From a virus (taxonomy: Duplodnaviria; Caudoviricetes), in IMG/VR virus record IMGVR_UViG_3300009506_000037, positions 1 to 57,711 of that record: a stretch of DNA of 57,711 nucleotides; one strand, 5' to 3'. The position numbers and the translations under genes are program-made. The first letter of the stretch is position 1. Every line of letters starts with the position of its first letter. The notes beneath the pieces are model-generated. The model did no database searches, was not told the origin of the DNA, and worked only from the letters and a program-made list of their open reading frames with translations. Shown here piece after piece: positions 1 to 57,711 of this stretch.

Positions 1-144
1 CTGGCACGGCAGGAACTGGCCCAGTTACGACTCGTACTGGGTGACCAACAAGTTCAAGGCCGGGGCAACAGTCTCGGTGCTGGACATTGCTGGTCAGCGG
101 ATCAATGCAACCGTCGTTCAAAATGGCCGCGGCTACAAGATTGA
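1..144. repeat. Terminal direct repeat (copy 1); circular assembly overlap
   Basis: 1-144 is identical to 57568-57711, and an ORF reads through the junction. Confidence 0.95.
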
Positions 145-214: not shown

Positions 215-277
215 GTCGAAACGCCCTCCGGGGCGTCTGGGTACCGGTGGCTCCGGGCCCACTGATGAGACAAGCCA
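215..277 (+). ncRNA. Type II hammerhead ribozyme HH5 (predicted cleavage after C237)
   Basis: GTC-GAAA-CGCCC(TCCG)GGGCG-TC|stem I TGGG..CCCA-CTGATGA-GAC; loop TGGCT pairs with tail AGCCA. Confidence 0.93.
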
Positions 278-290
278 CAGGAGAATCACC

Positions 291-473
291 ATGAGCGAAC
301 CGATTGTTCTAACCCTGAGCGGGGGCGTCATTGAGCTGCTCGATGCCCCGGCTGGCACCGTGATTATAGTCCGTGACTATGACATCGATGACCCGGCCAA
401 CTATTACCCGGAGCAGATCATCTGTGACGAGTCTGGCCGGTACGTTGAGCGCGGTTTTCAGGTTCCGGACTGA
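291..473 (+). CDS. Small acidic hypothetical protein
   Basis: AGGAGA RBS then ATG 291 (MSEPIVL...). Confidence 0.7.
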   Translation: MSEPIVLTLSGGVIELLDAPAGTVIIVRDYDIDDPANYYPEQIICDESGRYVERGFQVPD

Positions 474-493: not shown

Positions 494-528
494 TTGACAA
501 ATGTTAAATTATCGTCTACACTTGTAGA
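494..528 (+). promoter_or_regulatory. Sigma70-like promoter overlapped by two palindromic operator-like sites
   Basis: TTGACA-17nt-TACACT; TTGACAaaTGTTAA and TCTACActTGTAGA. Confidence 0.75.
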
Positions 529-555: not shown

Positions 556-861
556 ATGTCCGATATCAATGTCCATTCCGATGAAGCCCTTCGGAATCTA
601 ATGAAACAGTACCGTGACGGCATCGAGGCCCACCTGAACAGCGAGATTAAGGTGATCGTCAATCGGGCCATCAACGCATCCAGTCCGGTCATTACCGCCA
701 GCGCGGCCTACAAGCAGGTCGCTCCGGAAGTGGTTAAGCTGCTGTACGCCTATGTCCGGTCCAACCGGGCAGAGTGGAGCGGCGGACCTGACGTCTCGTC
801 TAACGTCGTCGAGGCCATGTGGCGGGAAACAGCCCTCGCCATGATGGGGAAGTGGGTCTAA
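556..861 (+). CDS. Hypothetical protein
   Basis: 101-aa ORF with GAGG RBS; its stop abuts a ribozyme. Confidence 0.75.
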   Translation: MSDINVHSDEALRNLMKQYRDGIEAHLNSEIKVIVNRAINASSPVITASAAYKQVAPEVVKLLYAYVRSNRAEWSGGPDVSSNVVEAMWRETALAMMGKWV

Positions 862-922
862 GTCGAAACGCCCCTCAGGGGGCGTCTGGCCGGGTGGTCC
901 CCGGTCACTGATGAGACAGCCA
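862..922 (+). ncRNA. Type II hammerhead ribozyme HH6 (predicted cleavage after C886)
   Basis: GTC-GAAA-CGCCCC(TCAG)GGGGCG-TC|TGGCCGGG..CCCGGTCA-CTGATGA-GAC; loop TGGT pairs with tail GCCA. Confidence 0.93.
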
Positions 923-937
923 ACAACAGGAGGCACC

Positions 938-1180
938 ATGCAAGTCGTCAGATATCGAACCGACCACGGCACGTGCTGTGCACTGGTCGAATCCGGGCGC
1001 AAGTGGCTGCAAGTGATCCAGATGGACTCGTCTGGTATCCGGGTCCGCAAGGTCCCATGCAGCGACGAGCGATACATGACCCCGATGGACTACCCGCTGG
1101 CCAAGGCCAAGAAGCGCTTCAGGCTGGCCGGTAGACGATTCGGGATCACCAAGGGCGCCAAGCAGTTACTGCGCGGCTAA
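938..1180 (+). CDS. Small basic hypothetical protein
   Basis: AGGAGG RBS, ATG 938 (MQVVRYRTDH...). Confidence 0.75.
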   Translation: MQVVRYRTDHGTCCALVESGRKWLQVIQMDSSGIRVRKVPCSDERYMTPMDYPLAKAKKRFRLAGRRFGITKGAKQLLRG

Positions 1181-2340: not shown

Positions 2341-2370
2341 TTGTTTATACCAACGAGAGAGGTAATTCCC

Positions 2371-3135
2371 ATGACAAGCAAAGTAAACCTGATGTTACAC
2401 ACCGGCGGCTTCCACGTTGAGCGGGAAGAGCTGCACGCCAAGGACAATACACCCGCGTCAACCGACTCATGGGTGCCCATACCGCACTGGATGTTGACCG
2501 ATGAGGTCGAGCGCTCCCTGATTGCGGCCGGGTACGAGATCGTGGCACAGGAGCATGCCTTGGCTCGTGGTGGCAACCGCTACTTCGGCCTGTTCGAGCT
2601 GGCCTCAGCCAATAGTGACTACAACATGATCATGGGCGTTCGTAACAGCCATGACAAGTCCTTCCCGGCGGGTCTGGTGGTTGGGTCTGGCGTGTTCGTC
2701 TGCGACAATCTCTGCTTCTCTGGCGAGGTGAAAGTGGGCCGTCGTCATACCAGCAACATCAATCGTGACCTGCCCGGTCTGATTGACGCCGCCATTGGCA
2801 AGGTCAACACCATGAAGGTGTCGCAGGAAGCACGCCTCGAGGCCTACAAGACTACCGAGTTCAGCCAGTACCTGTCCGACCACCTGCTGGTCGAGCTGCT
2901 GCGGACCCGGGTCGTGACCGCCACCAAGATTCCGAAGATTCTCAAGTCGTACGAGAGTCCGGAGCACCCGGAGTTTCTGGTGGACGGCTTCACCGCATGG
3001 CGTTTCTTCAATGCCGTGACCGAGCACCTGAAGGGTGGTCTGGCTGACCTGCCTCGTGTAGGACAATCCTTACACGGGATTCTGGATGGCCAGTGCGGCA
3101 TCACCATCGATGGCGAGGGTAATATCGTCAAGTAA
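2371..3135 (+). CDS. DUF932-family protein
   Basis: VRNSHDKS...G..VFVCDN...RRHT motifs. Confidence 0.8.
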   Translation: MTSKVNLMLHTGGFHVEREELHAKDNTPASTDSWVPIPHWMLTDEVERSLIAAGYEIVAQEHALARGGNRYFGLFELASANSDYNMIMGVRNSHDKSFPAGLVVGSGVFVCDNLCFSGEVKVGRRHTSNINRDLPGLIDAAIGKVNTMKVSQEARLEAYKTTEFSQYLSDHLLVELLRTRVVTATKIPKILKSYESPEHPEFLVDGFTAWRFFNAVTEHLKGGLADLPRVGQSLHGILDGQCGITIDGEGNIVK

Positions 3136-3141
3136 TTCACC

Positions 3142-3166
3142 GGGGGCTACGGCCCCCATTTTTTTT
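3142..3166 (+). terminator. Rho-independent terminator
   Basis: GGGGGC-TACG-GCCCCC followed by a T run. Confidence 0.8.
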
Positions 3167-3180
3167 GAGAGGAGACCGAC

Positions 3181-10193: not shown

Positions 10194-10995
10194 CGTGCTC
10201 GGAACAATAAGCCATGGCGACATGGTGAATGGGGTAAAGCCAACATAGCCCCGCCTATTCGTAGGTGCCTCCGAGCAAGCTGAGTCCACGGGGTATGCCC
10301 CGGCCTTCGTTCCTGACGGGGGATAGTGACGAGTGATTAGGACTGCACTGGGCGTAATAATCAAAGGCCTTGGCCCATCGTGAGGTGGGCTGCAGTAGGA
10401 AAGCGAGTCATGATAGGACAAAGAGTAGGGCTGTAGTCAGAGCCGGCAGGTGAAGGCGAAGTCCAGACTGTTGCGGTCGAGGTCGAAGGATCTCAGTGGT
10501 CGCAGTAGAGCAGCTTAGTACCCGGCAGGAGAACAGCAGAAGGTGGGTGGCATATCGTCGGGGCAACCTGATGACACCACAGGGCAGCGCTCATCTTCGT
10601 TGGTTAGCAACGTAGCTCAATGGTAGAGCACACCCCTTGAAGGGTGCTGTTGCCGGTTCAAATCCGGTCGACGCATAAAAATGCAAAGACGCTGTCCGGC
10701 GTAGTGTGAAAGTGGCTTAAACCTGCGGCCTTCGGGTAACGCAGGGTCCCCAAAGTCGCAAGCTGAGGGGGCTCCGTGACGGAGAGCACTCGGGTCCTTT
10801 GGCCGGGAACCGGGGTATCGAGAGGGCGGAGTGGCGCTACGGAATAGGTCTATCGCCTGACCTGTAAACTAAACGGCAGTCATGATCTTGTACGCCAGCG
10901 TCACTTCGGTGGGTTGGCGTGGATAACCCGGCAACCGTGGGTCGCAAGCCTGCGGGTAATCTGGGGAAAGCGGGGCAATCGGAAATTGCTTAATC
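10194..10995 (+). ncRNA. Large structured ncRNA, GOLLD-like candidate
   Basis: About 800 nt with no credible ORF, directly behind a consensus promoter; many GNRA/UUCG-capped helices; embedded tRNA-like domain. Confidence 0.6.
10606..10676 (+). tRNA. Degenerate tRNA-like element (6-nt anticodon loop CTTGAA, mispaired acceptor stem)
   Basis: D arm TAGCTCAATGGTAGAGC; stem CACCC/GGGTG; T arm GCCGG-TTCAAAT-CCGGT; no CCA. Confidence 0.65.
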
Positions 10996-20485: not shown

Positions 20486-23400
20486 TTATTTGCTCAACCT
20501 CTCGTACCGTTTCTTCTTCATCTTGTTATAGATCCGGCTGAATTCCTGCATTACCTTCTCCCGGCGGGCTTTCAATGCCTTGATACGGTCATGCTTGACC
20601 CGCTTCGGCATGTCTTCCTTATTCTGCAGGTAGTGGATCTCAGTGTTCAGCTTCTTGATCTGCTCGTTAAACCGCTTCATCTGGTGCTCGCCCATCCAGA
20701 TCAGCTCGTAGTTATTGCGCTCGAAGTCCCGCACCAGCAGCGCGTCCTCCTTGCTGGCGACCTCCTTCTTCATTTTCTGGTGGGCCTTGGTGATCTGCTC
20801 GACCTCGGTGCGCTGGTCGTAGAAGGCACGCGGCACATCCCATTCGGTACGCTCGCCGATAACCTTCCGAGCAAATGGCACCTTGTTGTAGGGAATCTCA
20901 TCCCCATAGGCCAGCTTATTGTACATCAGGGTCGGGTATTCCACGCCCATGCGGGAAATGAATGCCCCGGCGCCACCGGTCACGAAGTTGATCCAGTGAT
21001 CCATTGTCTCCGGCGAGATATCGATGAGCCCGGATTCGTACTTGCTGCCACCGGTGAGGCTGTTCAGCTGCTCGGCGAACCACTTGGTGGCCGGGTTGAC
21101 GCTGCTCCAGTACCGCTGGCTGTCCGGAATCTGGGGACCGAAGGCCGGCTGGTCCGGCATGATCGGGGACCCCATGAAGTTCTCGTTGGTAGCCAAGTCG
21201 ACAATCGGGTCGGTGATGGTCGGGGAAATCATCTTCGCCAGCATGACCTCCATGTAGTCACTGTCCGAGTTGCCGATCGGGTTGAAGGAATCGATGAGAG
21301 TTACGGCGATGTTTACAGCTACCTTACCCAGTTTTTCGGGCGGCGCATGGATGGCGTCGCTGATGCTCATGCCGACCACGTGCGGTACGTTGTACCCGTA
21401 CGGCAGCGGGAACTGGAACCGGTCCTGACATTCTCCCAACGGGTTCATGACAATCAGGTTGCGGCGCTTAATCCAGTCCGGGATCTTGTCGTAGCAGTTC
21501 TCCCCGTCCTTATCGATGCCGGCCATCAGGCGGTTCAGCTCGGTCAGGCCGAACGCGGCGACCGCGATTCCGGCCAGCACTTTCTGCACCCGGGGGCTTT
21601 TGGCCGCCTTCCACATGGTGGCGGTGCCCTGAACGCTGGCGTTATAGAACAGGTACAGGGCGTTTGCCAGCGTACCCAGCTCGCCCTTCCGGTTGAAGTT
21701 CACGGTCAGGTTCTTGGCGATCGTGGCCGCCTGCTGGTCTGACATACCCATCTCAATGGCATTCTTGAATACAGCCAACCGGGCCGCATTTTCCACAGAG
21801 GCGTTGACATCCATGACATAGTCCTTAACGCCTTTCACGACGCGCAGGACCTTGGCGTAGTTGTCACCCTCCAGCATACGGATATCATTGTTCAGCCGGG
21901 CCCGCTTGGACTCAATAGTTTCCAGCCCGAAGAACCCGATCTTGCCACCAGACTCAGAGAACCGACGGAACCACTGGACCCACTCAGACCCATGCTCGGG
22001 GTTACGCAACCCCTGATAGATGCCCTTCACAGAACTCGGAATGTCCTTGATCATGCGCTTGGCCAGCTCTGACGGGTCCACTTCGGTACGAGCCTGCAGG
22101 TTGATCAGCGCGGTCTGGATGTCTCGGGCCGCGTTGGAGATAACGAACTCGGGGTTGTAAGCGGTATTAACCGCAGCGAGGAACCGGTTGAAGGCAGCCA
22201 GTGTCTGGACAATGGCGCCAGCTTTTTCGACGCCAACATTGGTCATCGCCCGGGCCAGCAGCGGGTCCTTGATTTTGATGTACTTTTCCTGCCCGTCGAT
22301 TTTCACGGACATAACGTCATCTGCCAGCTTGAAGAACGGGTCGCGACGGTAGGCCACCTCAGCGGTTCGCTCGTCATAGACCGGGCGAGTCGGCACGTCT
22401 TCAGGGTTTTCGATAACCTGCCACAGGTCCGGGTTAGGGTTATCCCGTACAAAATTCAGGAAAGCCTGACCGACGGTATTCTTTTCTGCCCGGATGATGG
22501 TCTCCTCCATCTGCAGAATACTGTAGATGATGGGGCTGTCAGCCCGTGAGCGGCGACCCAGAGCCCGTTTGGACTCCCGGCCCTTGATACTGAAGCCGCG
22601 ACCGATGCGCTGGAACAGGCCACCGTCTTCCTCGTAGAAGCCACGCAGCGGGACATAGTGGCCGTATTTCTCGCTCCACATGTCGATATTCTTCTGGGGT
22701 TCCAGTCCCGCTTTCTTCAGCAGCTTGAGGCGGGCGTTGTTGATCCGGTAGACCAGCTTGGCCAACTCCATCTTCTCGTTGTAGGTTCCGTCATTCTTGG
22801 CGATCTGGATGATGGCCTCGGCCTCGGCGTCGGTCATCCCGGATCCCATGACGCCCTGTTCGCGCAGGGTCGGGTTAATTTCCTGAATGTGCGCGTTACG
22901 TTCTGGGGCGTGCATGGCGTACAGAAACTCATCGAGCTGGTCCAGCGTGATGTCAGACTCACTGACAGCCTGCAGGAGCGGTTTCACGTACAGGTCCTCG
23001 AACTTCTCCAGCTCGTACTCTACTTTCCCGTGATACAGCTCCTCCTTCAGGTAGGCGTCGGTTTCTGGGTCAACGGTTACGTCCGGAAGCTCCTGTATCA
23101 CCCGGAGGCGGTCGTATTTGTCCTGCAGCTTGCGTACCAGAGAGCGCCACAATGTTTCACGTGGAACAGCGAACGGACCGTCTGACAGGTTGCCGCCCTC
23201 CTTGGAGCGGGACGCCATGGCCCGGCCTTCCTGCATCGCCTTGTTCCGGCCGGCACGTACCGCCAGTTTCATCCGGCCCAGAAGCCCGGTGATTTCGGTG
23301 TCGGTTACCTTCAGGCTTGGGAAAAACTTCCGCAGGAACTGGCGTACCAATGAGATGGCACGCTGTACCCACGAAGCGCGGGGATTGATTTCGGCTTCAT

Positions 23401-26400
23401 GGGCCAGAAATTCTTCGGCGGCGACCAGCCGTCCTTCCCGGGTGCGCAAGTCCAGATCATATTCCCGGGCAATCGAGCGCAGGCGCGGCTTGTTGACTTC
23501 CGCATTGAAGATCTGGAGCAGCAACGGCTCGATCTGCTTCGGTTCCAGCAGCTGGCGCAGGCCATAATGACCAATCATTTCATGGAACAGCAGGCGCTGC
23601 GCATGTTCAGGACTGCCAATCCGGTCGGCGATCATATAGACCTTGCCGGTATTGGTATCGAACAGGCCGTCGGTTTCGTCCTCGGCATTCTGAGACCGCA
23701 AGAAATCCTGCAAATGGTTGGGCAGCTGGTCGAAGCTATCCAGCACCTCAATGTCCGGGATATTGGTCCACGTGTTCATGATGTGACGCAGCGAGTCATA
23801 GATCTTGGAGACGCTCATGCCACGCTTGGCAGCCTTGCGGGCCATTTTCGGCTGATTCAGCCGCTGGGCATTGATGGCAGCCTGCAGCTCTTCACGGGAG
23901 GTCCGCTTCCAGCTGGTCAGGTCCACGCCCTTGGTGGGTTGGCGACCCTGCGTGCGAGCCATGTCCTGCTCGGTTGACTCCAGCATCTGCAGAATAGCTT
24001 TGACCTCTGGCAGCTTCCCGGACGGGTCGAAGCCAAATTCACCCGGGTCACCAAAATCTCCGGTCAGCACCCGGTACAGAGCATCGCTGATGTTCGTGTT
24101 GTATTCCCGGGCAAAATCCACCGGATTCACGTCGATGCCGAGCTCTTCCATCAGCATCCGTTGTACGCGGAAGGTGACGTCTTCCCATTCGACGGCGCGC
24201 TGTGCCTGAGCCAGTGTCAGCGGGGCCACCTCGAAGTCGATCTGTTTGGGCGGCTTGCCACGCTTTGAGACCCACGTGCGGCCCATACGGCCTTCACGGC
24301 GGCCATCGCCGTACTTGGCCTGCATGATGTCCTCGGTGATGCCGTGCGCCAGTTCGTGGACGATACGCCACTGACGGGTGTACTCGGTATCCTTGAAGGA
24401 CCCGTGCGCCACCCGGGGGTCGTAAATCCACAGTACCCCGTCCTTGTAGCCCTGTTTCTTCAGCTTGGGAATAGCAAATTCCACACCGGCCTCAGGGTCT
24501 TCGTGGAAGGCGAAGTATTTCACCTGATACCCGAAATCGTTCAGCAGATTTTCGACGAGGGTCGGGTCATCTACCAGCGTGTCGAGGTTGTAGATCTTGA
24601 GTGAGTCGGTGGAATCTTTCCCGGGATTGATGGCGCCGAACCGGCCATACACATCGGTCAGCGCGGCGTCCGGGTTGTTCAGTCGAGATAGGGGTACTGG
24701 TGCGGCAAGCGGCCCTTGGTACGACGTGTTCCATCCGTACTTTCTTGCGACGGTTTGGCCTGCTTCGATTGCGGCTTGGCGCCGATCACGAATCCACGGG
24801 AGTAAATCGGGTCGTCCGAGCTCGCTGATTTTAGCGGCGTATTCCTGACCTTCGGTAGCTTTTGTCCAGTCATTTGAGTGGTACCCTCCTTCTGCCTTGA
24901 ATTGTGTGAATTCAGGGATATCGAAACCAGTGAAAGTATGCACCACCTTGGTCATTTTGTCGATAAAATCTTTATCTGACGTCAGGAACGGCTTACCGTT
25001 TTCGTTCCGGAAATTGATAAACCGCAGCTTACCGTCGACCAAAGTGAATTCGACTCCGGGCAGGAACTGGTTTGAGTGGTCATAGAATTCCATCGCCATC
25101 TGGTCAGTAATCGGACGGTCGGCAGTAATTTGCAGACCGACGGCAGCTTTCTTACCAGTTAGCGTGGGGTCAGCGCGGTGCCACGGCACAGCGTCTTGGG
25201 TGAAAATCATGCCCACAATGTTGGCGTACAGGTCGGCCAGCTGAGGATCGTAGGCGCCTTCAATCTTCTCGGCCACGATGTGGGTCAACATGTTCGGGCT
25301 CACGGCCAGTTCGAAGCTGCCCATGGACTGCTCAGTCCGGGCCAGTGGTGCGCCCAGCTTCTCGATAACCATGTCCTGCCCATCACGGCCGGTGATCACA
25401 TCCAGCATAGCCTGATTGAAGTCAACGACTTCGTCGGTGCTGGCGGTATGGATACCCGGGAACATTCCGGATGAGACCGACGGACGGGCCTCCCATGTCA
25501 CGCTTTCGGTGGCACGGTTCAGGTATGTCGCAAAATCGACCGGCGCCGGCGGGACAAACTTGCCCTTAACCTTCTTGGCGGCATCGCTATTCCGGGCATA
25601 GAACCACAGCCCAGCCTGTACCTCACGCGGCAGATAGCTGGTGCCATGCTTGGCATTGTAGGCCTCGGTGATATCGATGGTCAGATCGTGGGCAAACGCA
25701 TACTGCCCGGCCCCGGCCCTGACACCGTCAGCGCTTTCCGGATAACCGAACAGGCGCAGCATCCAGCGGTCCTGCGTGCTGGCGTTGTCGAAATAATTGG
25801 TGCCGAAGGTGGCGTCGTGCAGGTTCATATAGAACGACATCAGCTTGTTATCGACGCCGGGCACAGAGACGTCCATGGTGGGCGCTTCCAGAATGCCACG
25901 CACCAGCTTTTTGGTGCGGTTCGGGAACCGTCCAGCCTCAGGCTCCATGTTGCCCCGGGAGATCTCGTAGATGGATTTTACGGCCGCGGTGGTATTACCG
26001 CCGACCTGATTGGCCTGTGAGTACAAGGACATCAGGCGCACCAGATTCTCAGCGGTCTGGCGATCGCCGTTGGCGGCCTTGCGGATGGCTTCCCCGGAAC
26101 GGTCGTACCACTCCATGGTGAACGGGGTCTGGGCCAGCGGGTCTTCCAGAATATTCAGCATGCGGCGAACCAGCCCGGCGCGCTTCTGCATCGAGTTGAT
26201 GCCCGGGGGAGCCCCTGACAGGTCGCCCTTCGCGTTGAACTTGCGGGGCTTGGCAGTGCGCCGGTAAAGGGTGTCTGCCTGAGATTTGGCGTGCTTCTCC
26301 GGAACGATCGTGATGCCCTCGGGACTGAACATAATCACGTCACCGGTGTCATCGGATATGGCAGCGTCGTAACCCTGCCGTTTCAGCTTCTTCAGCAGCT

Positions 26401-29400
26401 CCGGCTTGTCACGAAGCGTCCGCCAGTCCTCATCCATAATGGTGACCGGGTTCTTGTAGTCCAGCTTGGCCTTAATGACCCGCTTGCCATGCTGTTTCGC
26501 AACCGACCGGCTCCGGGTGAAGTGGCCAGCCACCCCTTCCTGAGTCTTAAACTGGTCAAATTCGGCGTTGGTTCCGTGATAGTAGGCCTTGTTGCCGCGG
26601 CTCATGCGCACGCCCACATCCTGACTAGCTTCGCCGAACTGCTGCTTGATGGCCTCGGAATTCGGGTAGGTGATATCAATCAGGCCGCTAATGAACGGGG
26701 ACTTCCCGGGCTGTTCCGCGTTGCGCTGGTCATACGACTGCGGCTGCAGATATGTTTCAGTAAAGCCCATGGTCTTGGTGCCATATTTGGCATCGACATT
26801 CTTGATAACAACCGGGACTTCCTTGATGCCGGCCCGGGCCAGTGCAGCCATACGGTGGCGGCCTTCATGCCCGACAATCTTCGGGATACCGCCATCCTCG
26901 GTGCTGATATGCAGGAACGGAGTCTGGATCTCGTTGGCCAGCTCCTCGGTATCTAGCGGGCCAGTTTCGCCATATATGGTTCGCGGGTTACCGGTGGCGC
27001 GTACAAAGTCATCCGGGTTGATGTAGGCCATTCCTGCGATCACCCGGCCGTCCGGGTACGCATATTCAGAAAAGATGTTCCGGATCCGGTCATCGGTCAG
27101 GCCTACCTTGTCCTGCCCCATCTGGATATTTTCTTCGGTGGTGCGCTGGGCGCCACGAGACAGCTTCGGTTCCTGCAGGCCATACTCGGCAGCAACGGGC
27201 TCAGTCTTCTGGCCGGTTTGCACCCAGTTCTTGAATTCCTCGATGGGCATGGCAACGATGGAGTCCAGCCCCTTCCAGTCCTTCGAGTAATTGTTCATGT
27301 AGACCTGACGGGCCTCTTCCTCACTGTTCACGCCGAGGACGGCCTTGTGCTCATCGAACTTCCCGGTGGTCGGGTTCTTCTGGTCCACCACGTATACGGT
27401 GTCAGTGTTCTCGGCATTCGGACCAAGGAAAACGTCGACCTCTTCGCCGTCGGCTCCCTTGGTCATCTTGATATGGCCGTAGGGATTCTCCATGGTGTTG
27501 TCCCAGACATTGCCATTCTTGTCAGAACCGGTGCGCACGGTGCCACGCGGGTTCTCAATGGCGATATCCAGTCCCTGCACGTTCACGACGCCGGGTTCCT
27601 GCGGGTTGGCTTTGGTCTGTTCCTCGGCCTTGGCGATGTTCAAGCCATATTTCTGTTCAGCTTGCTGGAAGGCAGCTTCCATGGCGGTCGGCTCTTTGCC
27701 GGTGACCTGACGCTCTGCGGCACGGTTTTCCAGCGCTGACTGGACCTTGTCCGGCGCGGTCTCAGGCCGGGCGTTGTCCTTCTCCAGCTGGGAGAATCCG
27801 AGGTCCTGCTCCAGCGCCTTCATGGTTTTCTGGTCAGCCTCGTAGATATCAAAGGCTTCTTTCACGGAGCGGCTATAGTCCTGCTGCGCTTCGCCAGCCG
27901 CATCGGTGGCCTGCTGCAGCTCGGAGTCTGGCGCATTCTCCTCGGCCAGCTTGTTCAGGCGGTCAATCGCTGCCTTCAGCCGGTTCCGGGAGGTATTGAT
28001 GCGCTGCTCATGGATGCCACCAACTGAGGCGGCAACCATGTCAACCGGGGCAGTGATCGCCTCGCCGGCTGCTTCAGCCAAAATCTGGCCCCATTCCAGC
28101 GGGCGGCCAGCAGCGAGCTCTCCACCACCTTCGCCGATAGCACCCATGGTGCCTTGCACGGCAGTCTGGACCGGGACATTAATGACATGGCGCGCAACCA
28201 CATTCGCAACAGCCTTCGGTACTAGGGTGCGGCCAGCCAAACCGAAGCTCAGGCCGTCCAGCAAACCAACAACGGCAGCATGGGCTCGAGCTTCCTTGGT
28301 GATCTGCTTGTACATCTGAGGGTCAAGCAGCGCGTTTCGGACAGCTTCAATATTGTTCGTGTCGACCCCGTTACGCTGCAGAGCTCCCTGCAATTCAGCG
28401 GCAAAGTCGACATTGTAGGAGCCTTGACCTGTGGCCAGCATGCCAAGCCACGGTCCACCAAGAGCGGCAGCCACGGAGCCCTTGGCCAGCGGCTCAGCCA
28501 TCATCGGCAAGGAGGTGGTTCCCACTTCACCGACAAACGAGACAGGGTCGCGCTTCACATAACCCCATGCGGTTTTGAAGTCGTTTGCTTTGAAGGCTTC
28601 TTCCGCTACGGGAGCGGTCTGGATCTTGGCGGCCTCAGCCCCCTTCTTCGTAGAAATAGTCAGCAGGCGGTCAATCTTGTCACGCTCACGCTGCAGGGCC
28701 TCACCCATAACCCGAGGGTTGGATGACATGGTCTTGCCGGTTTCACTGATTAGCGGACGGCCAGCTTCATCAGAAGGCTCGCCCGGGCGCGCACTAATGG
28801 CGCTGCGCATCAGTGGTTGGTTACGTTGTACGTCAGGCATTTGCGGGGCCAGCGAGGCGGAGCGGGTCTTCGCTGAGGTCTCGGCCTCATCAATCGAATT
28901 GAATCCCTCCAGCTTGCGACCGGTTTCCGGATCCACCCCACCATTCTCAATAATGATGCGTTCCGCTTCGCGCTGCGTAACCTGCTTCCCATTGTACATG
29001 GACGGGATATTGGTCGGCTTACCGCCATTAATTTTTGGGTTGGTTACCGTGATGGTGCGTTCGGTCGAGAACGACCCGTCCGGGTTGCGGACAATCGGGC
29101 GTCCTTCTGAGGTGTATTTCCCGGTCGGGACATCCTCAGCGGTCATGCGGTCGGTATAGTCTTCGCGCAGGCCGTGGTAACGGCTGGCAATATCCGCAGC
29201 GCCGCTCATGGCCTTGGCGCTTTCCAGCTGTTTCATACCGCGGGTCAGGCGCTCGTCGACCACCTCACCGGTCGGGCGGGCTTCATACTGTGCCTGACGA
29301 TAATCGAAGTCAGCATAACGGGTGTCCGCGTCGAACTTCTCCCGGACCAGATCCATCGACATCGGTTTCCCGGTCTGTTTCTGGAGTTCCTGTACCCGGG

Positions 29401-29506
29401 GAGCGACTACATCCTCGAAGTATTTCTGGCGGACTTTTTCTTTTGTCGCAGAATCGAGCTTCTGAAACCGCTCATCCTGCACCACTTCTGCCCAAGTTTT
29501 GGACAT
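20486..29506 (-). CDS. Giant (3006 aa) large polyvalent protein, probably virion-injected
   Basis: Inorganic-pyrophosphatase-like domain (IENPRG..R.G....W...M..PYG.I....GADG..VDVF), ParB-like EGRHR, ART-like YHGT..F..F, zincin motifs HELAH and HEMIGH, LPD38-like C-terminus. Confidence 0.85.
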   Translation of the reverse strand: MSKTWAEVVQDERFQKLDSATKEKVRQKYFEDVVAPRVQELQKQTGKPMSMDLVREKFDADTRYADFDYRQAQYEARPTGEVVDERLTRGMKQLESAKAMSGAADIASRYHGLREDYTDRMTAEDVPTGKYTSEGRPIVRNPDGSFSTERTITVTNPKINGGKPTNIPSMYNGKQVTQREAERIIIENGGVDPETGRKLEGFNSIDEAETSAKTRSASLAPQMPDVQRNQPLMRSAISARPGEPSDEAGRPLISETGKTMSSNPRVMGEALQRERDKIDRLLTISTKKGAEAAKIQTAPVAEEAFKANDFKTAWGYVKRDPVSFVGEVGTTSLPMMAEPLAKGSVAAALGGPWLGMLATGQGSYNVDFAAELQGALQRNGVDTNNIEAVRNALLDPQMYKQITKEARAHAAVVGLLDGLSFGLAGRTLVPKAVANVVARHVINVPVQTAVQGTMGAIGEGGGELAAGRPLEWGQILAEAAGEAITAPVDMVAASVGGIHEQRINTSRNRLKAAIDRLNKLAEENAPDSELQQATDAAGEAQQDYSRSVKEAFDIYEADQKTMKALEQDLGFSQLEKDNARPETAPDKVQSALENRAAERQVTGKEPTAMEAAFQQAEQKYGLNIAKAEEQTKANPQEPGVVNVQGLDIAIENPRGTVRTGSDKNGNVWDNTMENPYGHIKMTKGADGEEVDVFLGPNAENTDTVYVVDQKNPTTGKFDEHKAVLGVNSEEEARQVYMNNYSKDWKGLDSIVAMPIEEFKNWVQTGQKTEPVAAEYGLQEPKLSRGAQRTTEENIQMGQDKVGLTDDRIRNIFSEYAYPDGRVIAGMAYINPDDFVRATGNPRTIYGETGPLDTEELANEIQTPFLHISTEDGGIPKIVGHEGRHRMAALARAGIKEVPVVIKNVDAKYGTKTMGFTETYLQPQSYDQRNAEQPGKSPFISGLIDITYPNSEAIKQQFGEASQDVGVRMSRGNKAYYHGTNAEFDQFKTQEGVAGHFTRSRSVAKQHGKRVIKAKLDYKNPVTIMDEDWRTLRDKPELLKKLKRQGYDAAISDDTGDVIMFSPEGITIVPEKHAKSQADTLYRRTAKPRKFNAKGDLSGAPPGINSMQKRAGLVRRMLNILEDPLAQTPFTMEWYDRSGEAIRKAANGDRQTAENLVRLMSLYSQANQVGGNTTAAVKSIYEISRGNMEPEAGRFPNRTKKLVRGILEAPTMDVSVPGVDNKLMSFYMNLHDATFGTNYFDNASTQDRWMLRLFGYPESADGVRAGAGQYAFAHDLTIDITEAYNAKHGTSYLPREVQAGLWFYARNSDAAKKVKGKFVPPAPVDFATYLNRATESVTWEARPSVSSGMFPGIHTASTDEVVDFNQAMLDVITGRDGQDMVIEKLGAPLARTEQSMGSFELAVSPNMLTHIVAEKIEGAYDPQLADLYANIVGMIFTQDAVPWHRADPTLTGKKAAVGLQITADRPITDQMAMEFYDHSNQFLPGVEFTLVDGKLRFINFRNENGKPFLTSDKDFIDKMTKVVHTFTGFDIPEFTQFKAEGGYHSNDWTKATEGQEYAAKISELGRPDLLPWIRDRRQAAIEAGQTVARKYGWNTSYQGPLAAPVPLSRLNNPDAALTDVYGRFGAINPGKDSTDSLKIYNLDTLVDDPTLVENLLNDFGYQVKYFAFHEDPEAGVEFAIPKLKKQGYKDGVLWIYDPRVAHGSFKDTEYTRQWRIVHELAHGITEDIMQAKYGDGRREGRMGRTWVSKRGKPPKQIDFEVAPLTLAQAQRAVEWEDVTFRVQRMLMEELGIDVNPVDFAREYNTNISDALYRVLTGDFGDPGEFGFDPSGKLPEVKAILQMLESTEQDMARTQGRQPTKGVDLTSWKRTSREELQAAINAQRLNQPKMARKAAKRGMSVSKIYDSLRHIMNTWTNIPDIEVLDSFDQLPNHLQDFLRSQNAEDETDGLFDTNTGKVYMIADRIGSPEHAQRLLFHEMIGHYGLRQLLEPKQIEPLLLQIFNAEVNKPRLRSIAREYDLDLRTREGRLVAAEEFLAHEAEINPRASWVQRAISLVRQFLRKFFPSLKVTDTEITGLLGRMKLAVRAGRNKAMQEGRAMASRSKEGGNLSDGPFAVPRETLWRSLVRKLQDKYDRLRVIQELPDVTVDPETDAYLKEELYHGKVEYELEKFEDLYVKPLLQAVSESDITLDQLDEFLYAMHAPERNAHIQEINPTLREQGVMGSGMTDAEAEAIIQIAKNDGTYNEKMELAKLVYRINNARLKLLKKAGLEPQKNIDMWSEKYGHYVPLRGFYEEDGGLFQRIGRGFSIKGRESKRALGRRSRADSPIIYSILQMEETIIRAEKNTVGQAFLNFVRDNPNPDLWQVIENPEDVPTRPVYDERTAEVAYRRDPFFKLADDVMSVKIDGQEKYIKIKDPLLARAMTNVGVEKAGAIVQTLAAFNRFLAAVNTAYNPEFVISNAARDIQTALINLQARTEVDPSELAKRMIKDIPSSVKGIYQGLRNPEHGSEWVQWFRRFSESGGKIGFFGLETIESKRARLNNDIRMLEGDNYAKVLRVVKGVKDYVMDVNASVENAARLAVFKNAIEMGMSDQQAATIAKNLTVNFNRKGELGTLANALYLFYNASVQGTATMWKAAKSPRVQKVLAGIAVAAFGLTELNRLMAGIDKDGENCYDKIPDWIKRRNLIVMNPLGECQDRFQFPLPYGYNVPHVVGMSISDAIHAPPEKLGKVAVNIAVTLIDSFNPIGNSDSDYMEVMLAKMISPTITDPIVDLATNENFMGSPIMPDQPAFGPQIPDSQRYWSSVNPATKWFAEQLNSLTGGSKYESGLIDISPETMDHWINFVTGGAGAFISRMGVEYPTLMYNKLAYGDEIPYNKVPFARKVIGERTEWDVPRAFYDQRTEVEQITKAHQKMKKEVASKEDALLVRDFERNNYELIWMGEHQMKRFNEQIKKLNTEIHYLQNKEDMPKRVKHDRIKALKARREKVMQEFSRIYNKMKKKRYERLSK

Positions 29507-54548: not shown

Positions 54549-54790
54549 GTAGCGTTCCTCTCTCTGTGTGTAAGGTTTGAGTAGTCCCGGCCTGACGGAC
54601 CGCGCAGCAACGCGGTTTGATGGACAGGTGGAGCAGGTTCTCAGCGCCTCCCAGCACGTCGCTACACGTGCCGCTGCTCTGCCGACTACTCTCGGCCGCT
54701 CTCGGGGTGTATCAGAAACCTAAAGCCACCCCACCGGTCCCATGCAGACCGGTGCCGTACTGGGTGGCCACCTATGGTTAAGGTTCACAG

Positions 54791-54819
54791 AGTATAGGTG
54801 ATTCTCAACAATCTGTCGA
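54791..54819 (-). promoter_or_regulatory. Leftward promoter heading the long late transcription unit, with operator palindrome
   Basis: TCGACA-17-TATACT on - strand; TCAACAatcTGTCGA. Confidence 0.65.
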
Positions 54820-54869
54820 GAAAAACCTGAGAAAAATCACTCAGTTACCGACGCCAAGAGCGACGTCGA

Positions 54870-55169
54870 TTACTCGTCGTGATGCTGGTCTCGGGGCCCG
54901 TAGATATCTTCTCGCGGACCGCGTGCGGGCTCTACTGCCCGGCCCATGCCGTCATCCTTGTTGCACAGCCCCATGGACCGCAGCTCGGGGTTGTTGCACG
55001 GGTCGCTCTGTTCCCGGCCCTGTCGCAGCATACCGGCTGCAGAATCCGGCCCGGCGACTTGGTCAACGTCGCGCTCACCCTGCCATGTTTCGCCGGTTTC
55101 TTCATCTTTGTACGTGGTACTGCCCATCGTGTTCTCTCCTATGTCGGGCCCTCTCTCATCTATGGCCAT
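54870..55169 (-). CDS. Acidic hypothetical protein
   Basis: AGGAGA RBS before internal ATG (MGSTTY). Confidence 0.5.
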   Translation of the reverse strand: MAIDERGPDIGENTMGSTTYKDEETGETWQGERDVDQVAGPDSAAGMLRQGREQSDPCNNPELRSMGLCNKDDGMGRAVEPARGPREDIYGPRDQHHDE

Positions 55170-55257
55170 AAGTGTAGCTTATTCCTTCCCGGGACGTCGT
55201 CATAAATTGAACTTATCCTGCTATAAAAAACTTTCATGAACATTTGTCGATAATTTC

Positions 55258-55286
55258 TTGACTTCGACAAAACGTCGAACTATCGT
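55258..55286 (+). promoter_or_regulatory. Early-operon promoter with operator palindrome in the spacer
   Basis: TTGACT-17-TATCGT; TCGACAaaaCGTCGA; upstream TGAACAttTGTCGA. Confidence 0.7.
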
Positions 55287-55554
55287 TACACCATACCGAC
55301 GACGAAATTGACTTCGATTAGGACAGTCGGAAACAGGGAAGTCCAGCAGGAAGCTGGCGATTGAAAGGGATGAACCGCACGGCCCGGTATAAGAGTCGGC
55401 ACCCAGAGATACTGCACGAAGGGGCAGAAGCAACGGGGGCAAGCCAAAGGGCTTTCGCTGAGAGTCCTTTGCCTTGTCAACCAATGGGACGCGATTGACA
55501 GTGCACGCTGAGTCAACACTCAGTCACCACTGAGTTCACACTGAGAGCCAACTA

Positions 55555-55616
55555 GTCGAAACCCCGGGCGACCGGGGTCAGCAGGAACTGGCCTACCTGC
55601 TCTGATGAGACAGGCC
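55555..55616 (+). ncRNA. Type II hammerhead ribozyme HH1 (predicted cleavage after C55579)
   Basis: GTC-GAAA-CCCCGG(GCGA)CCGGGG-TC|AGCAGG..CCTGCT-CTGATGA-GAC; loop GGCCT pairs with tail AGGCC. Confidence 0.95.
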
Positions 55617-55635
55617 CAACCAACAGGAGATCGAC

Positions 55636-55779
55636 ATGTACGCATCTATCGCAGACATCATCGCTAATGCCAACGCCAGCGCAGAAGAGTCCATGGAATC
55701 CATGGACGACGACATGCTGGAGCGCTGGGAAAGCTGGGAAATCGACGCCGAATCCGAGCTCGATTTTAACTCACATTAA
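55636..55779 (+). CDS. 47-aa highly acidic peptide (not in ORF track)
   Basis: AGGAGA RBS; MYASIADIIANANASAEESMESMDDDMLERWESWEIDAESELDFNSH*. Confidence 0.7.
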   Translation: MYASIADIIANANASAEESMESMDDDMLERWESWEIDAESELDFNSH

Positions 55780-55816
55780 TCATCAATCGTTCACACCCGA
55801 TTGATAGGAGGTACCT

Positions 55817-56083
55817 ATGAATCCACATTACTGGAGAGTAGAGCGGGTTGAGTTCCAACGGCTCAATGACTATGGGCTGACCAAGGTCAAGCTGGTGGGG
55901 GATATTCTGAACCCGGAGGACCACAGTCCCCTGTATCTATGCCGCACCCTGCAGACGGCGCTGTTTCCCACTACGGAGGCAGCTGACCTATGGGCGCGTA
56001 ACGCAGCGGTCATCCATGGCCTCAAGGCGGTCCACGAGATACAACGTCCAGCCAAGCGAGGTCCAGCATGGTCACGTTCCTGA
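55817..56083 (+). CDS. Hypothetical protein
   Basis: AGGAGG RBS. Confidence 0.7.
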   Translation: MNPHYWRVERVEFQRLNDYGLTKVKLVGDILNPEDHSPLYLCRTLQTALFPTTEAADLWARNAAVIHGLKAVHEIQRPAKRGPAWSRS

Positions 56084-56124
56084 TTGTCTGGGCCCTGTCC
56101 CTTGGTGTCATCGCATTCCTGTAA
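56068..56124 (+). CDS. 18-aa hydrophobic micropeptide
   Basis: GAGG RBS; MVTFLIVWALSLGVIAFL*; its TAA abuts HH2. Confidence 0.5.
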   Translation: MVTFLIVWALSLGVIAFL

Positions 56125-56185
56125 GTCGAAACGCCCTTCGGGGCGTCTTCCCGGGGTAGGTTCCCGGGAACTGATGAGACAACCT
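56125..56185 (+). ncRNA. Type II hammerhead ribozyme HH2 (predicted cleavage after C56147)
   Basis: GTC-GAAA-CGCCC(TTCG)GGGCG-TC|TTCCCGGG..CCCGGGAA-CTGATGA-GAC; loop AGGTT pairs with tail AACCT. Confidence 0.95.
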
Positions 56186-56202
56186 GAGAGAGGAGACCCA
56201 TC

Positions 56203-56631
56203 ATGACCAAGCGTTACGATAAACTGTGCCGCTCAGTTACCAAGCGGCAAAAGCGAGACTGTTCGGTCGTCGCGGTAGCCATCGCCGGTCGCGTGTCCTA
56301 CCAGAAGGCGGAGGCGGCGCTGACTCAGGCCGGTAAACGCATCAATGGCGGTGCCTATGACCATGAAATCCGCAACGCCCTGATCTTTCTAGGCTGTGAG
56401 GTTACCGTGGTCCGTGACACGCACGGCTCGCCGTTCCTGAGCCAGCCCAACGATTCACGCTACACCATGTCCACCATTGGCAAGCTCTGCAAGCGCGGCT
56501 ATTACGTCGCCTTTGTTCGCGGTCACGTGGCTGCCGTGGTGAATGGCGAAGTCGAAGACTGGACCGATGGTCGACGCCATCAAGTCTACATGGCCTACAA
56601 GGTCACCGTTCCAAAGGGCTCACGCTCATAG
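56203..56631 (+). CDS. Papain/C39-like peptidase-fold protein
   Basis: DCSVVAVAIA...Y...GHVAAVVNG.VEDW (Cys-His-Asp). Confidence 0.6.
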   Translation: MTKRYDKLCRSVTKRQKRDCSVVAVAIAGRVSYQKAEAALTQAGKRINGGAYDHEIRNALIFLGCEVTVVRDTHGSPFLSQPNDSRYTMSTIGKLCKRGYYVAFVRGHVAAVVNGEVEDWTDGRRHQVYMAYKVTVPKGSRS

Positions 56632-56641
56632 GAGGCAAGCC

Positions 56642-56839
56642 ATGCACCATCCATCCAATAAACCGAACTGCGACTACCCCACCCCGGACTGGCAGCTCTT
56701 CAGCATGATGAGTGAGCTGTCACCCATCCGGCGCCAGCAGGCCAAGGCCCGTCACATGCGTCGCTGGGGTCACGTGTTCGCCACCAAGGTTCACCTGCAC
56801 CATGCAGACTACCTGCGTGAATACGAGCGCTCCCTATAG
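56642..56839 (+). CDS. Hypothetical protein
   Basis: AGGAGG RBS; its TAG overlaps HH3. Confidence 0.65.
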   Translation: MHHPSNKPNCDYPTPDWQLFSMMSELSPIRRQQAKARHMRRWGHVFATKVHLHHADYLREYERSL

Positions 56840-56900
56840 TCGAAACCGGCTCCGGCCGGTCTGCGGGATCCCGGTCCTACCCGCACTGATGAGACAGGAC
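56839..56900 (+). ncRNA. Type II hammerhead ribozyme HH3 (predicted cleavage after C56861)
   Basis: GTC-GAAA-CCGGC(TCCG)GCCGG-TC|TGCGGG..CCCGCA-CTGATGA-GAC; loop GTCCT pairs with tail AGGAC. Confidence 0.95.
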
Positions 56901-56921
56901 CCACAACATAGGAGCAACATC

Positions 56922-57230
56922 ATGGCCAACATATCTACCTCCAACCTCATCGACCAGCTGGGCGAACTGAAAGCCCAGATCGCGGACCTCGAAAACCAGA
57001 AGAAGGTCATCGAGGGACGCCTGAAGAAGAGAATCCTGCCCCATGGCGAGGGCGAGGGCGAGCTCTTCAGGGTGGTCCGTGTCATCCAGAACAACACCCG
57101 CGTCAACTGGAAGGGTATTGCCATCAAGCTGAAGGCATCCAAGCAGCTGATAGAGAGCTTCACGGAGCACCACGATGACAAGGACTTCTTCAAGGTGTCC
57201 GCCCGTCGAGGCCTCGAAAAGGTTGCGTAA
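56922..57230 (+). CDS. Conserved phage hypothetical protein
   Basis: AGGAG RBS; IDQLGELKAQIADL...EGELF...VNWK. Confidence 0.75.
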   Translation: MANISTSNLIDQLGELKAQIADLENQKKVIEGRLKKRILPHGEGEGELFRVVRVIQNNTRVNWKGIAIKLKASKQLIESFTEHHDDKDFFKVSARRGLEKVA

Positions 57231-57233
57231 TCC

Positions 57234-57296
57234 GTCGAAACCGGGCTCCGGCCCGGTCCATGGGACCTTACCTACCCATGCTGATGAGACAGGTAA
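57234..57296 (+). ncRNA. Type II hammerhead ribozyme HH4 (predicted cleavage after C57258)
   Basis: GTC-GAAA-CCGGGC(TCCG)GCCCGG-TC|CATGGG..CCCATG-CTGATGA-GAC; loop TTACCT pairs with tail AGGTAA. Confidence 0.95.
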
Positions 57297-57337
57297 AATC
57301 CTTTCAATTCAGACATTTAACTATAGCACAGGAGGCC

Positions 57338-57711
57338 ATGATGGTCACTAAAAATCGCACCATGATCAGCGATTCTGGCCATGGCTGGTTGTCGGTCCCG
57401 ATCGACGATCTGGTCAAGCTGGACATCGTCGACAAGATCACCCGGTACAGCTATATCAGCCCCACCCGGGTCTATCTCGAGGAAGACTGCGACGCCGGTA
57501 CCTACCTGCGGGCAGCTGAGGAGATCGGCTGGAAGGTCAATGTGAAGCACTCCTTCACTGGTGACCACTGGCACGGCAGGAACTGGCCCAGTTACGACTC
57601 GTACTGGGTGACCAACAAGTTCAAGGCCGGGGCAACAGTCTCGGTGCTGGACATTGCTGGTCAGCGGATCAATGCAACCGTCGTTCAAAATGGCCGCGGC
57701 TACAAGATTGA
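57338..57711 (+). CDS. Conserved phage hypothetical protein (SGHGWL...YLEEDCD motif); continues across the origin to TGA at 212-214
   Basis: AGGAGG RBS before ATG 57338; manual translation MMVTKNRTMISDSGHGWLSV...YLEEDCDAG...QYIYRPN*. Confidence 0.8.
   Translation, partial: MMVTKNRTMISDSGHGWLSVPIDDLVKLDIVDKITRYSYISPTRVYLEEDCDAGTYLRAAEEIGWKVNVKHSFTGDHWHGRNWPSYDSYWVTNKFKAGATVSVLDIAGQRINATVVQNGRGYKI
57568..57711. repeat. Terminal direct repeat (copy 2)
   Basis: Identical to 1-144. Confidence 0.95.

Follow-up and report, generated by a model that had tools for sequence, protein, structure and literature searches.

The genome of an uncultured tailed phage, entered as IMG/VR record IMGVR_UViG_3300009506_000037 and analysed here over its whole length of 57,711 nucleotides (nt; called the window below), carries six elements within 2.9 kilobases (kb), all on the plus strand and set ahead of or between small genes, whose identity as type II hammerhead ribozymes is strongly supported by their core, topology, covarying stems, copy-specific pseudoknots and Rfam scores. 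Judged from the sequence, these elements would probably cleave themselves while the RNA is being synthesised and would cut the RNA of the operon into units that bear hairpins at both ends; that the six cut themselves is presumed from the behaviour of those members of the family that have been tested.

Type II hammerheads are common in bacteria and have been described with a pseudoknot between loop I and the 3′ tail, which is required for their fast cleavage; prophages carry multiple hammerheads around single genes or short gene blocks, where the processing of long phage transcripts has been proposed, and triple arrays of three bacteria were cleaved in vitro, with one cleaved in Escherichia coli (Perreault 2011; PMC3088659). 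Three type II hammerheads were cleaved in vivo in Desulfovibrio vulgaris RNA (Olzog 2021; PMC8782182), and the hypothesis of polycistronic processing is repeated in a 2019 review (PMC6765202). The cutting of transcripts by such ribozymes is therefore a standing hypothesis and not a new one, since it was published for prophage clusters (Perreault 2011). Our literature search returned no paper on arrays of at least six copies or on the abutment of ribozymes to stop codons, which is no proof of absence, and the supplements of Perreault 2011 and Olzog 2021 may show either. We describe below the six elements and their placement, their occurrence elsewhere, and the readings that may account for them.

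Six elements with type II hammerhead architecture

A strict search pattern, GTCGAAAC-N10-30-GTC-N15-45-CTGATGAGAC, matches the window six times, always on the plus strand (HH1 to HH6; Table 1), and gave no match in any of 100 dinucleotide-preserving shuffles. The exact 10-nt string CTGATGAGAC is confined in the window to the six elements, four further sites differing from it by one mismatch. The Rfam model RF02276 (Hammerhead_II; curated gathering cut-off 37 bits) matches all six copies over model positions 1-66, with per-genome E-values from 1.3e-13 to 1.5e-6, and three of them (HH6, HH2 and HH1, in falling order of score) exceed the cut-off. No seventh copy was found among the 23 candidates scored by this model over the whole record. 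HH4 (57234) is absent from the cmscan list at E≤1, yet was scored at 36.8 bits in the whole-record search with RF02276.

When parsed by script, all six elements have the strand order GUC-GAAA-[stem III hairpin]-UC-[stem I hairpin]-CUGAUGA-GAC, which is the type II permutation with stem II open. Stem II is a 3-base-pair (bp) GUC/GAC helix in every copy, stem III has 6-7 bp and a 4-nt loop, and stem I has 5-9 bp. By the core criteria given in the Methods of Perreault 2011 (PMC3088659), the conserved positions C3 U4 G5 A6 N7 G8 A9, G12 A13 A14, A15.1-U16.1 and H17 are all occupied as expected, with CUGAUGA, GAAA and GUC in each of the six, and the core-adjacent pairs of the three stems are likewise complete (G10.1-C11.1, A15.1-U16.1, and a 1.1-2.1 pair that is A-U, U-A or C-G). 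Two core strings of 7-10 nt are invariant across the copies, and the sequences of the hairpins vary.

This variation preserves pairing. Stem pairs were counted from the core outward by script, because a MAFFT alignment of the copies is not structure-aware; at stem III positions 3-6 both C-G and G-C occur among the six copies, and at stem I positions 1-6 A-U, U-A, C-G, G-C and G-U pairs are all represented, with at least five positions paired in each copy. In all six, loop I can pair with the 3′ tail in a pseudoknot of 4-6 bp (at least four pairs being the threshold), which starts 0-1 nt past GAC and whose sequence differs from copy to copy (Table 1). The cognate pseudoknots total 32 bp, a sum reached by one of the 720 loop-tail permutations, the true assignment, and by none of 5000 tail shuffles. 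In minimum free energy (MFE) folds of the isolated elements, stem III is recovered in six of six and stem I in five of six.

The copies share 58-78% pairwise identity and fall into two similarity groups, HH1, HH3 and HH4 at 69-75% and HH2, HH5 and HH6 at 77-78%, a division that fits duplication within the genome, after which the copies would have diverged while selection preserved the fold.

On all sequence-level criteria applied, then, the elements belong to the type II hammerhead family, with three of the six lying narrowly under the score cut-off. A first-pass annotation of the window had placed six plus-strand elements at precisely these starts and had read in them the full core in type II order with a 3-bp stem II, as well as stems I and III that differ between copies yet remain paired; each of these observations is reproduced by the pattern search, the script parse and the covariation counts, and its cleavage positions and the spacings between them agree exactly with ours. 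The check that it proposed, with the Rfam type II model, gives a match for all six copies, half of which clear the 37-bit cut-off.

Placement between genes and predicted RNA ends

The six copies follow one another on the plus strand with one to three open reading frames (ORFs) between neighbours, a close and co-oriented grouping of the kind described for prophages, and the predicted cleavage sites are 568, 714, 397, 546 and 649 nt apart. Four copies abut the stop codon of an ORF of 65-147 amino acids (aa): HH3 shares its first G with the TAG stop of gene D (an offset of -1 nt), HH4 begins 3 nt past the TAA of gene E, and HH5 and HH6 begin right at the end of the gene F TGA and the gene H TAA, respectively (0 nt). 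HH2 adjoins only the TAA of an 18-codon ORF (56068-56124), the stop codon of gene B lying 41 nt upstream, and HH1 sits in the leader with no ORF of at least 30 aa ahead of it. Each copy is followed, 19-47 nt past GAC, by a Shine-Dalgarno-like (SD-like) motif and a start codon.

The predicted upstream products consist, beyond the gene, of the stop codon plus 22-25 nt and end in a hairpin (-11.1 to -15.4 kcal/mol) that leaves a single 3′ nucleotide unpaired. The predicted downstream products have a hairpin from nucleotide 1 (-6.5 to -15.3 kcal/mol) within a leader of 51-79 nt. Units of one to three genes, capped by hairpins and each provided with a ribosome-binding site and start codon, had all been proposed in the first reading of the sequence, and these predicted ends agree with that picture; its statement that five copies lie within 3 nt of the stop codon of an upstream gene is correct for HH3, HH4, HH5 and HH6, extends to HH2 only if the 18-codon ORF is counted, and does not apply to HH1.

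The first intergenic gap past the array that is devoid of a hammerhead, between genes I and J, holds at 1181-1205 on the plus strand a G+C-rich hairpin, CCGGGGGGC ATT GCCCCCCC, which has no T run.

Genome setting and transcription signals

The record has a CheckV completeness of 100%, and its first 144 nt recur identically at its end, so that window position 1 corresponds to 57568 and the genome unit without the second repeat copy measures 57,567 nt. Because of this terminal repeat, the array is uninterrupted, passing over the end of the window and continuing at its start, with gene F reading through; the crossing of the origin noted at first pass is thereby upheld. The identity as a tailed phage comes from PHROGs matches to a major head protein, portal/adaptor, large terminase, internal virion protein, helicase and RecT, and to a 3006-aa virion protein with a lysozyme-like segment. 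On the minus strand, structural genes take up the region between about 54548 and 20486, and the small plus-strand genes run outward from the other side of the gap at 54549-55635.

This 1.1-kb gap separates the divergent gene blocks, and several of its features deserve mention. It contains a possible minus-strand ORF of 85-99 aa at 54870-55169 and, at about 55200-55300, an A+T-rich stretch with promoter-like sites on both strands. A sigma-70-like promoter candidate, a consensus match, lies about 270 nt upstream of HH1, and the leader of about 270 nt before HH1 has no Rfam match at E≤1. Just ahead of HH1, at 55497-55548 on the plus strand, four ACTCAGT/ACTGAGT words of 6-7 nt alternate in orientation and form overlapping inverted repeats, which could be DNA operator sites or else alternative hairpins of the leader RNA that an HH1 cut would remove.

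Downstream, a strong hairpin resembling an intrinsic terminator (3142-3167) likely marks the end of the plus-strand transcription unit. As consensus matches, these signals suggest a unit of about 5.4 kb that has the array in its first 2.9 kb and in which transcription might also start internally at least once, at the candidate between genes G and H. Reading the hammerhead elements as terminators was rejected: no T run follows their hairpins, and a terminator scan reports none of the six.

Type II hammerheads in other genomes

Matches to the strict motif fall in at least 120 stretches of IMG/VR contigs; among genomes of widely differing bacteria and archaea, they likewise fall in at least 120. 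Placement was surveyed for 138 copies among the matches listed in IMG/VR loci, each at least 200 nt from the end of its locus. Among these, 103 of the 138 begin no more than 3 nt from the stop codon of a same-strand ORF of at least 40 aa, against 143 of 4800 random positions, and for 114 of the 138 the next 80 nt bring an SD motif and a start codon with 40 open codons behind it. In viral contigs, hammerheads of this form nearly always take up the whole interval between a stop codon and the ribosome-binding site that comes next (103 of the 138 copies among the matches listed).

Copy number per locus among the matches listed was one in 95 loci, two in 13, three in two, four in one and seven in one, counts that are underestimates given the strict motif and the limited flanks. 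One contig (G012; L132 / L047; G012:C1:32339-35541) has seven RF02276 matches in 3.2 kb, four of them over the cut-off; its ribozymes begin at a stop codon (offsets of -1 to 3 nt), with a start codon 18-34 nt past the ribozyme; another (G013; G013:C1:11368-14304) has eight RF02276 matches in 2.9 kb, all under the cut-off. Neither had a match in the capsid search, and both represent phages unrelated to that of the window. Among the records sampled, arrays of at least six copies are uncommon and not unique, and the window array stands at the high end for copy number.

A blastn search of window positions 55400-57711 against 50,697 phage records gave no match, and single-protein searches for related loci with gene C and the ORF at 2341-3132 found nothing. 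Three complete phages of the 15 records examined (G002, G004 and G005) have a capsid protein 55-58% identical to that of the window phage; at E≤1e-3 no early-region protein is common to these three and the window, and, apart from the terminase, the regions fetched from them match the window at E≤1e-5 only in a few short stretches at about 11.2-11.5, 15.9-16.2 and 44.0-44.2 kb, none of which lies in the array. Related phages had been suggested as the place to look for an alternation of gene and ribozyme; the capsid relatives have one copy each, and arrays of seven and eight occur in unrelated contigs.

The lone hammerhead of G005 (L127 6212-6300; G005:C1:52219-52290) lies between a small ORF and the gene of a P-loop ATPase-like protein, and its loop I and tail resemble those of HH5 and HH6 (GGUGGCU / AAGCCAAC). 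A hammerhead also accompanies gene C in part of its range: six of 48 viral records with a gene C homologue have one type II hammerhead 80-120 nt downstream of the homologue, and four of these six records look like one lineage.

Proposed mechanism and alternative readings

In the mechanism that we favour, the six ribozymes would be transcribed along with the small plus-strand genes that leave the divergent control region of this 57.6-kb tailed phage. Each copy would fold during RNA synthesis, stems I and III forming hairpins, stem II staying open with 3 bp and loop I pairing with the 3′ tail as a pseudoknot, and would cut itself after GUC, 22-25 nt beyond the upstream stop codon, so that the transcript or transcripts would be split into pieces of one to three genes. 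The upstream piece would retain its stop codon and would have as its 3′ end the G+C-rich hairpin of stem III, bearing a 2′,3′-cyclic phosphate, and the downstream piece would begin with a 5′-OH directly on the stem I hairpin, followed by the remainder of a 51-79 nt leader with its own ribosome-binding site. The HH1 cut would take off the primary 5′ leader, of about 290 nt if the promoter candidate at 55258-55286 is used. We infer that the purpose of the cuts would be to give each gene unit a stability and a translation of its own, independent of its neighbours; that there is an adaptive purpose at all seems to us about an even bet.

Several observations weigh against this account. HH4, HH3 and HH5 score 0.2-3.9 bits under the RF02276 cut-off; HH1 alone among the copies lacks stem I in its MFE fold, an alternative pairing being preferred, and fold z-scores are modest (-0.9 to -2.5). 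Each capsid relative has a single type II hammerhead even at E≤10, with no other Rfam ribozyme at E≤0.1 in the 51.8 kb taken from the three phages; an array is therefore not needed by phages of this capsid type. The candidate promoter at 494-522 lies inside the array, and some units may arise without processing. A search of sequencing runs returned no RNA run, its single row covering 0.07 of the words and consisting of contigs; the matching run yields one 199-nt contig over 56459-56656, within genes C and D, which is uninformative on cleavage. More generally, the purpose of such ribozymes is said to need more work to define (2019 review; PMC6765202). Of the first-pass interpretation, the type II identity is strongly supported, and its picture of the product ends fits the predicted ones. 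Its description of an "early" operon is drawn from position and small orphan genes and is presumptive, and its assumption of one transcript is weakened, since with a good promoter-like site at 494-522 the region need not form a single RNA.

Among other explanations, the one that survives best keeps the ribozymes active and has their cleavage gated or tuned by upstream translation or by conditions such as Mg2+, the array setting relative expression; cleavage would depend on translation of the upstream gene because stem II, whose 5′ strand begins at the stop codon or within it, would be covered along with part of stem III by a ribosome terminating there. In favour of this, four of six copies start next to the stop codon of an ORF of real size (offsets of -1 to 3 nt), the same abutment marks 103 of the 138 viral copies among the matches listed, and regulated cleavage has been raised for phage hammerheads (Perreault 2011; PMC3088659). 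We nonetheless regard gating as unlikely: abutment is explained more simply by the compact intergenic gaps of phages, since ribozyme and ribosome-binding site occupy the entire gap; HH1 has no upstream ORF and HH2 only one of 18 codons; and no ligand-binding or sensor domain is visible in the parsed structures, whose loops are short.

The copies might instead be selfish or neutral passengers, ribozyme cassettes spread by duplication or recombination into gaps where they do little harm and bring no benefit. Such spread would accord with the two similarity groups, suggestive of duplication within the genome, with the single copies of the capsid relatives, with the wide distribution of the motif, present in at least 120 genome stretches across very diverse bacteria and archaea, and with a hammerhead beside the gene C homologue in only six of 48 records. 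This seems distinctly improbable when set against cores that are intact in all six copies, compensatory stem changes and copy-specific pseudoknots that show continued selection for an active fold after divergence, and the sense-strand orientation of every copy in register with stop codon and ribosome-binding site.

It is very improbable, in our estimation, that the cut units are rejoined, by reverse cleavage or by a host ligase of the RtcB type acting on the 5′-OH and 2′,3′-cyclic phosphate ends, into circular or spliced RNAs. Because stem II (GUC/GAC) and the core do not differ among the six copies, and because stems I and III each form a hairpin by themselves, the two ends of any unit are compatible hammerhead halves; the possibility was named by Perreault 2011 (PMC3088659), where circular or spliced products are reported as not detected. 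Against it also, ends 397-714 nt apart would be joined by only the 3 bp of stem II, and GUC/GAC is a widespread form of the motif and not specific to this array. The related notion that the array supplies interchangeable RNA ends, by which single-gene mRNAs would be circularised or units rejoined in a new order, is equally remote; if true, it would give phage messages that are circular and exonuclease-proof. Finally, that the elements are not ribozymes, and are intergenic hairpin repeats (terminators, RNase sites or protein-binding sites) that look like hammerheads by chance, is suggested by the two G+C-rich hairpins per element and can practically be dismissed, given the lack of any chance match in shuffles, Rfam E-values down to 1.3e-13, and core strings that are invariant while the hairpin sequences vary. 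Co-transcriptional self-cleavage of the operon RNA is the reading carried forward below.

Comparison with known systems

The elements share with RF02276 the core, the strand order, the hairpin stems I and III, the open stem II and the conserved 3′ tail, and differ from it in a stem II of 3 bp, for which the model annotates two pairs and takes the third as an insertion. In its design, in which stop codon, ribozyme and start codon succeed one another, the array resembles that of G012/L047; the arrays of G012 and G013 are larger (seven and eight) than that of the window.

In phage T7, the host RNase III cuts the early transcript between early genes at double-stranded sites, leaving a 5′-phosphate and a 3′-OH. 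Cuts between early genes in the window would likewise yield units with hairpin 3′ ends, but here the RNA is predicted to cut itself and to leave 5′-OH and 2′,3′-cyclic phosphate ends, and the analogy is one of outcome only. The long imperfect double-stranded hairpin of an RNase III-type site is absent from the six elements, each of which is a three-way junction built of 3-9 bp stems around a core that is single-stranded and conserved. RNase E, for its part, prefers 5′-monophosphate ends, and the first-pass argument that a 5′-OH would make a poor substrate for it is likewise an analogy.

A synthetic parallel is provided by insulators of the RiboJ type, which were engineered from a satellite-RNA ribozyme. 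In both cases, a self-cleaving ribozyme placed before a ribosome-binding site gives a defined hairpin 5′ end regardless of the upstream sequence (in the phage, by prediction); in the window, unlike in the synthetic devices, the arrangement is natural and repeated.

The closest precedents are the prophage clusters, which are alike in having several coding-strand hammerheads, including pseudoknotted type II ones, around single or short blocks of unrelated small phage genes (Perreault 2011; PMC3088659). They differ in that the arrays tested there were triple ones of bacterial prophages, whereas here the complete genome of a free, uncultured phage has six copies within 2.9 kb, and in that one copy here lies in the leader ahead of the first gene.

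Flanked genes and other features

None of the 10 proteins scanned from the region belongs to a Pfam family. In PHROGs, the only matches were those of gene C, to phrog_3754 and phrog_15863 (both of unknown function), and a weak RecE-like one of gene E (E 0.0068). Gene C has 14 homologues besides itself, all hypothetical and one of them from a gammaproteobacterial metagenome-assembled genome, a weak pointer to Gammaproteobacteria; genes F and H resemble only unnamed viral clusters in a protein atlas. The flanked genes show no paralogy among themselves (best E-value 0.032). The 18-codon ORF that ends at HH2 is wholly hydrophobic and may encode a small membrane peptide.

Table 1. Hammerhead elements, flanking genes and associated signals in the window (structures as parsed by script; bit scores from RF02276)
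Feature	Coordinates	Strand	Description
HH1	55555..55619	+	Leader, ahead of first gene; strict-pattern match 55555-55611; model match 55554-55619, 39.2 bits; predicted cleavage after 55579; stem III 7 bp, stem I 6 bp; pseudoknot GGCCU:AGGCC
HH2	56125..56188	+	Strict-pattern match 56125-56180; model match 56124-56188, 51.8 bits; predicted cleavage after 56147; stem III 6 bp, stem I 9 bp; 5-bp pseudoknot UAGGU:ACCUG
HH3	56839..56903	+	Strict-pattern match 56839-56895; model match 56838-56903, 33.9 bits; predicted cleavage after 56861; pseudoknot GGUCCU:AGGACC
HH4	57234..57298	+	Strict-pattern match 57234-57290; model match 57233-57298, 36.8 bits; predicted cleavage after 57258; pseudoknot UUACCU:AGGUAA
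HH5	215..280	+	Strict-pattern match 215-271; model match 214-280, 33.1 bits; predicted cleavage after 237; pseudoknot GUGGCU:AGCCAC
HH6	862..925	+	Strict-pattern match 862-917; model match 861-925, 60.1 bits; predicted cleavage after 886; pseudoknot UGGU:GCCA
Gene A	55636-55779	+	47 aa, acidic
Gene B	55817-56083	+	88 aa
Hydrophobic ORF (MVTF...AFL)	56068-56124	+	18 codons; overlaps end of gene B; GAGG 7 nt upstream; ends at start of HH2
Gene C	56203-56631	+	142 aa; phrog_3754, function unknown
Gene D	56642-56839	+	65 aa; no Pfam family
Gene E	56922-57230	+	102 aa; no Pfam family
Gene F	57338..57711, through terminal repeat, ending at window 214	+	147 aa
Gene G	291-473	+	60 aa
Gene H	556-861	+	101 aa; upstream flank of HH6
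Gene I	938-1180	+	80 aa; downstream flank of HH6
Promoter candidate, sigma-70-like	55258..55286	+	TTGACT-17-TATCGT, 9/12; consensus match only
Promoter candidate, sigma-70-like	494..522	+	TTGACA-17-TACACT, 10/12; between genes G and H, within array; consensus match only
Hairpin, intrinsic-terminator-like	3142..3167	+	6 G-C pairs, then T run; after ORF 2341-3135
Terminal direct repeat	1..144 = 57568-57711	n/a	Identical, 144 nt

Two features lie far from the array. The 3006-aa protein is encoded by a single minus-strand ORF (20486-29506), and matches giant virion proteins whose function is unknown (phrog_14770, phrog_616) over its C-terminal 900 aa and lysozyme-like or DarB-like segments over residues of about 500-775. 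A tRNA-like gene at 10606-10676 on the plus strand is, besides the hammerheads, the sole match in the window at Rfam gathering thresholds (tRNA, 43.3 bits); ARAGORN reports it as 'tRNA-???' with a two-letter anticodon '(tg)', and its anticodon loop is shortened in the Rfam alignment.

Concluding remarks

The known picture is unchanged by these observations, which add a further and copy-rich example of an arrangement already described, one in which six copies divide a single run of small orphan genes and would also trim the leader. As regards the role of the thousands of hammerheads that bacteria and phages carry, a complete phage genome with six intact copies and covarying pseudoknots offers a compact natural test case for asking whether ribozyme cuts set the stability of mRNA, insulate translation from upstream sequence, or do neither.

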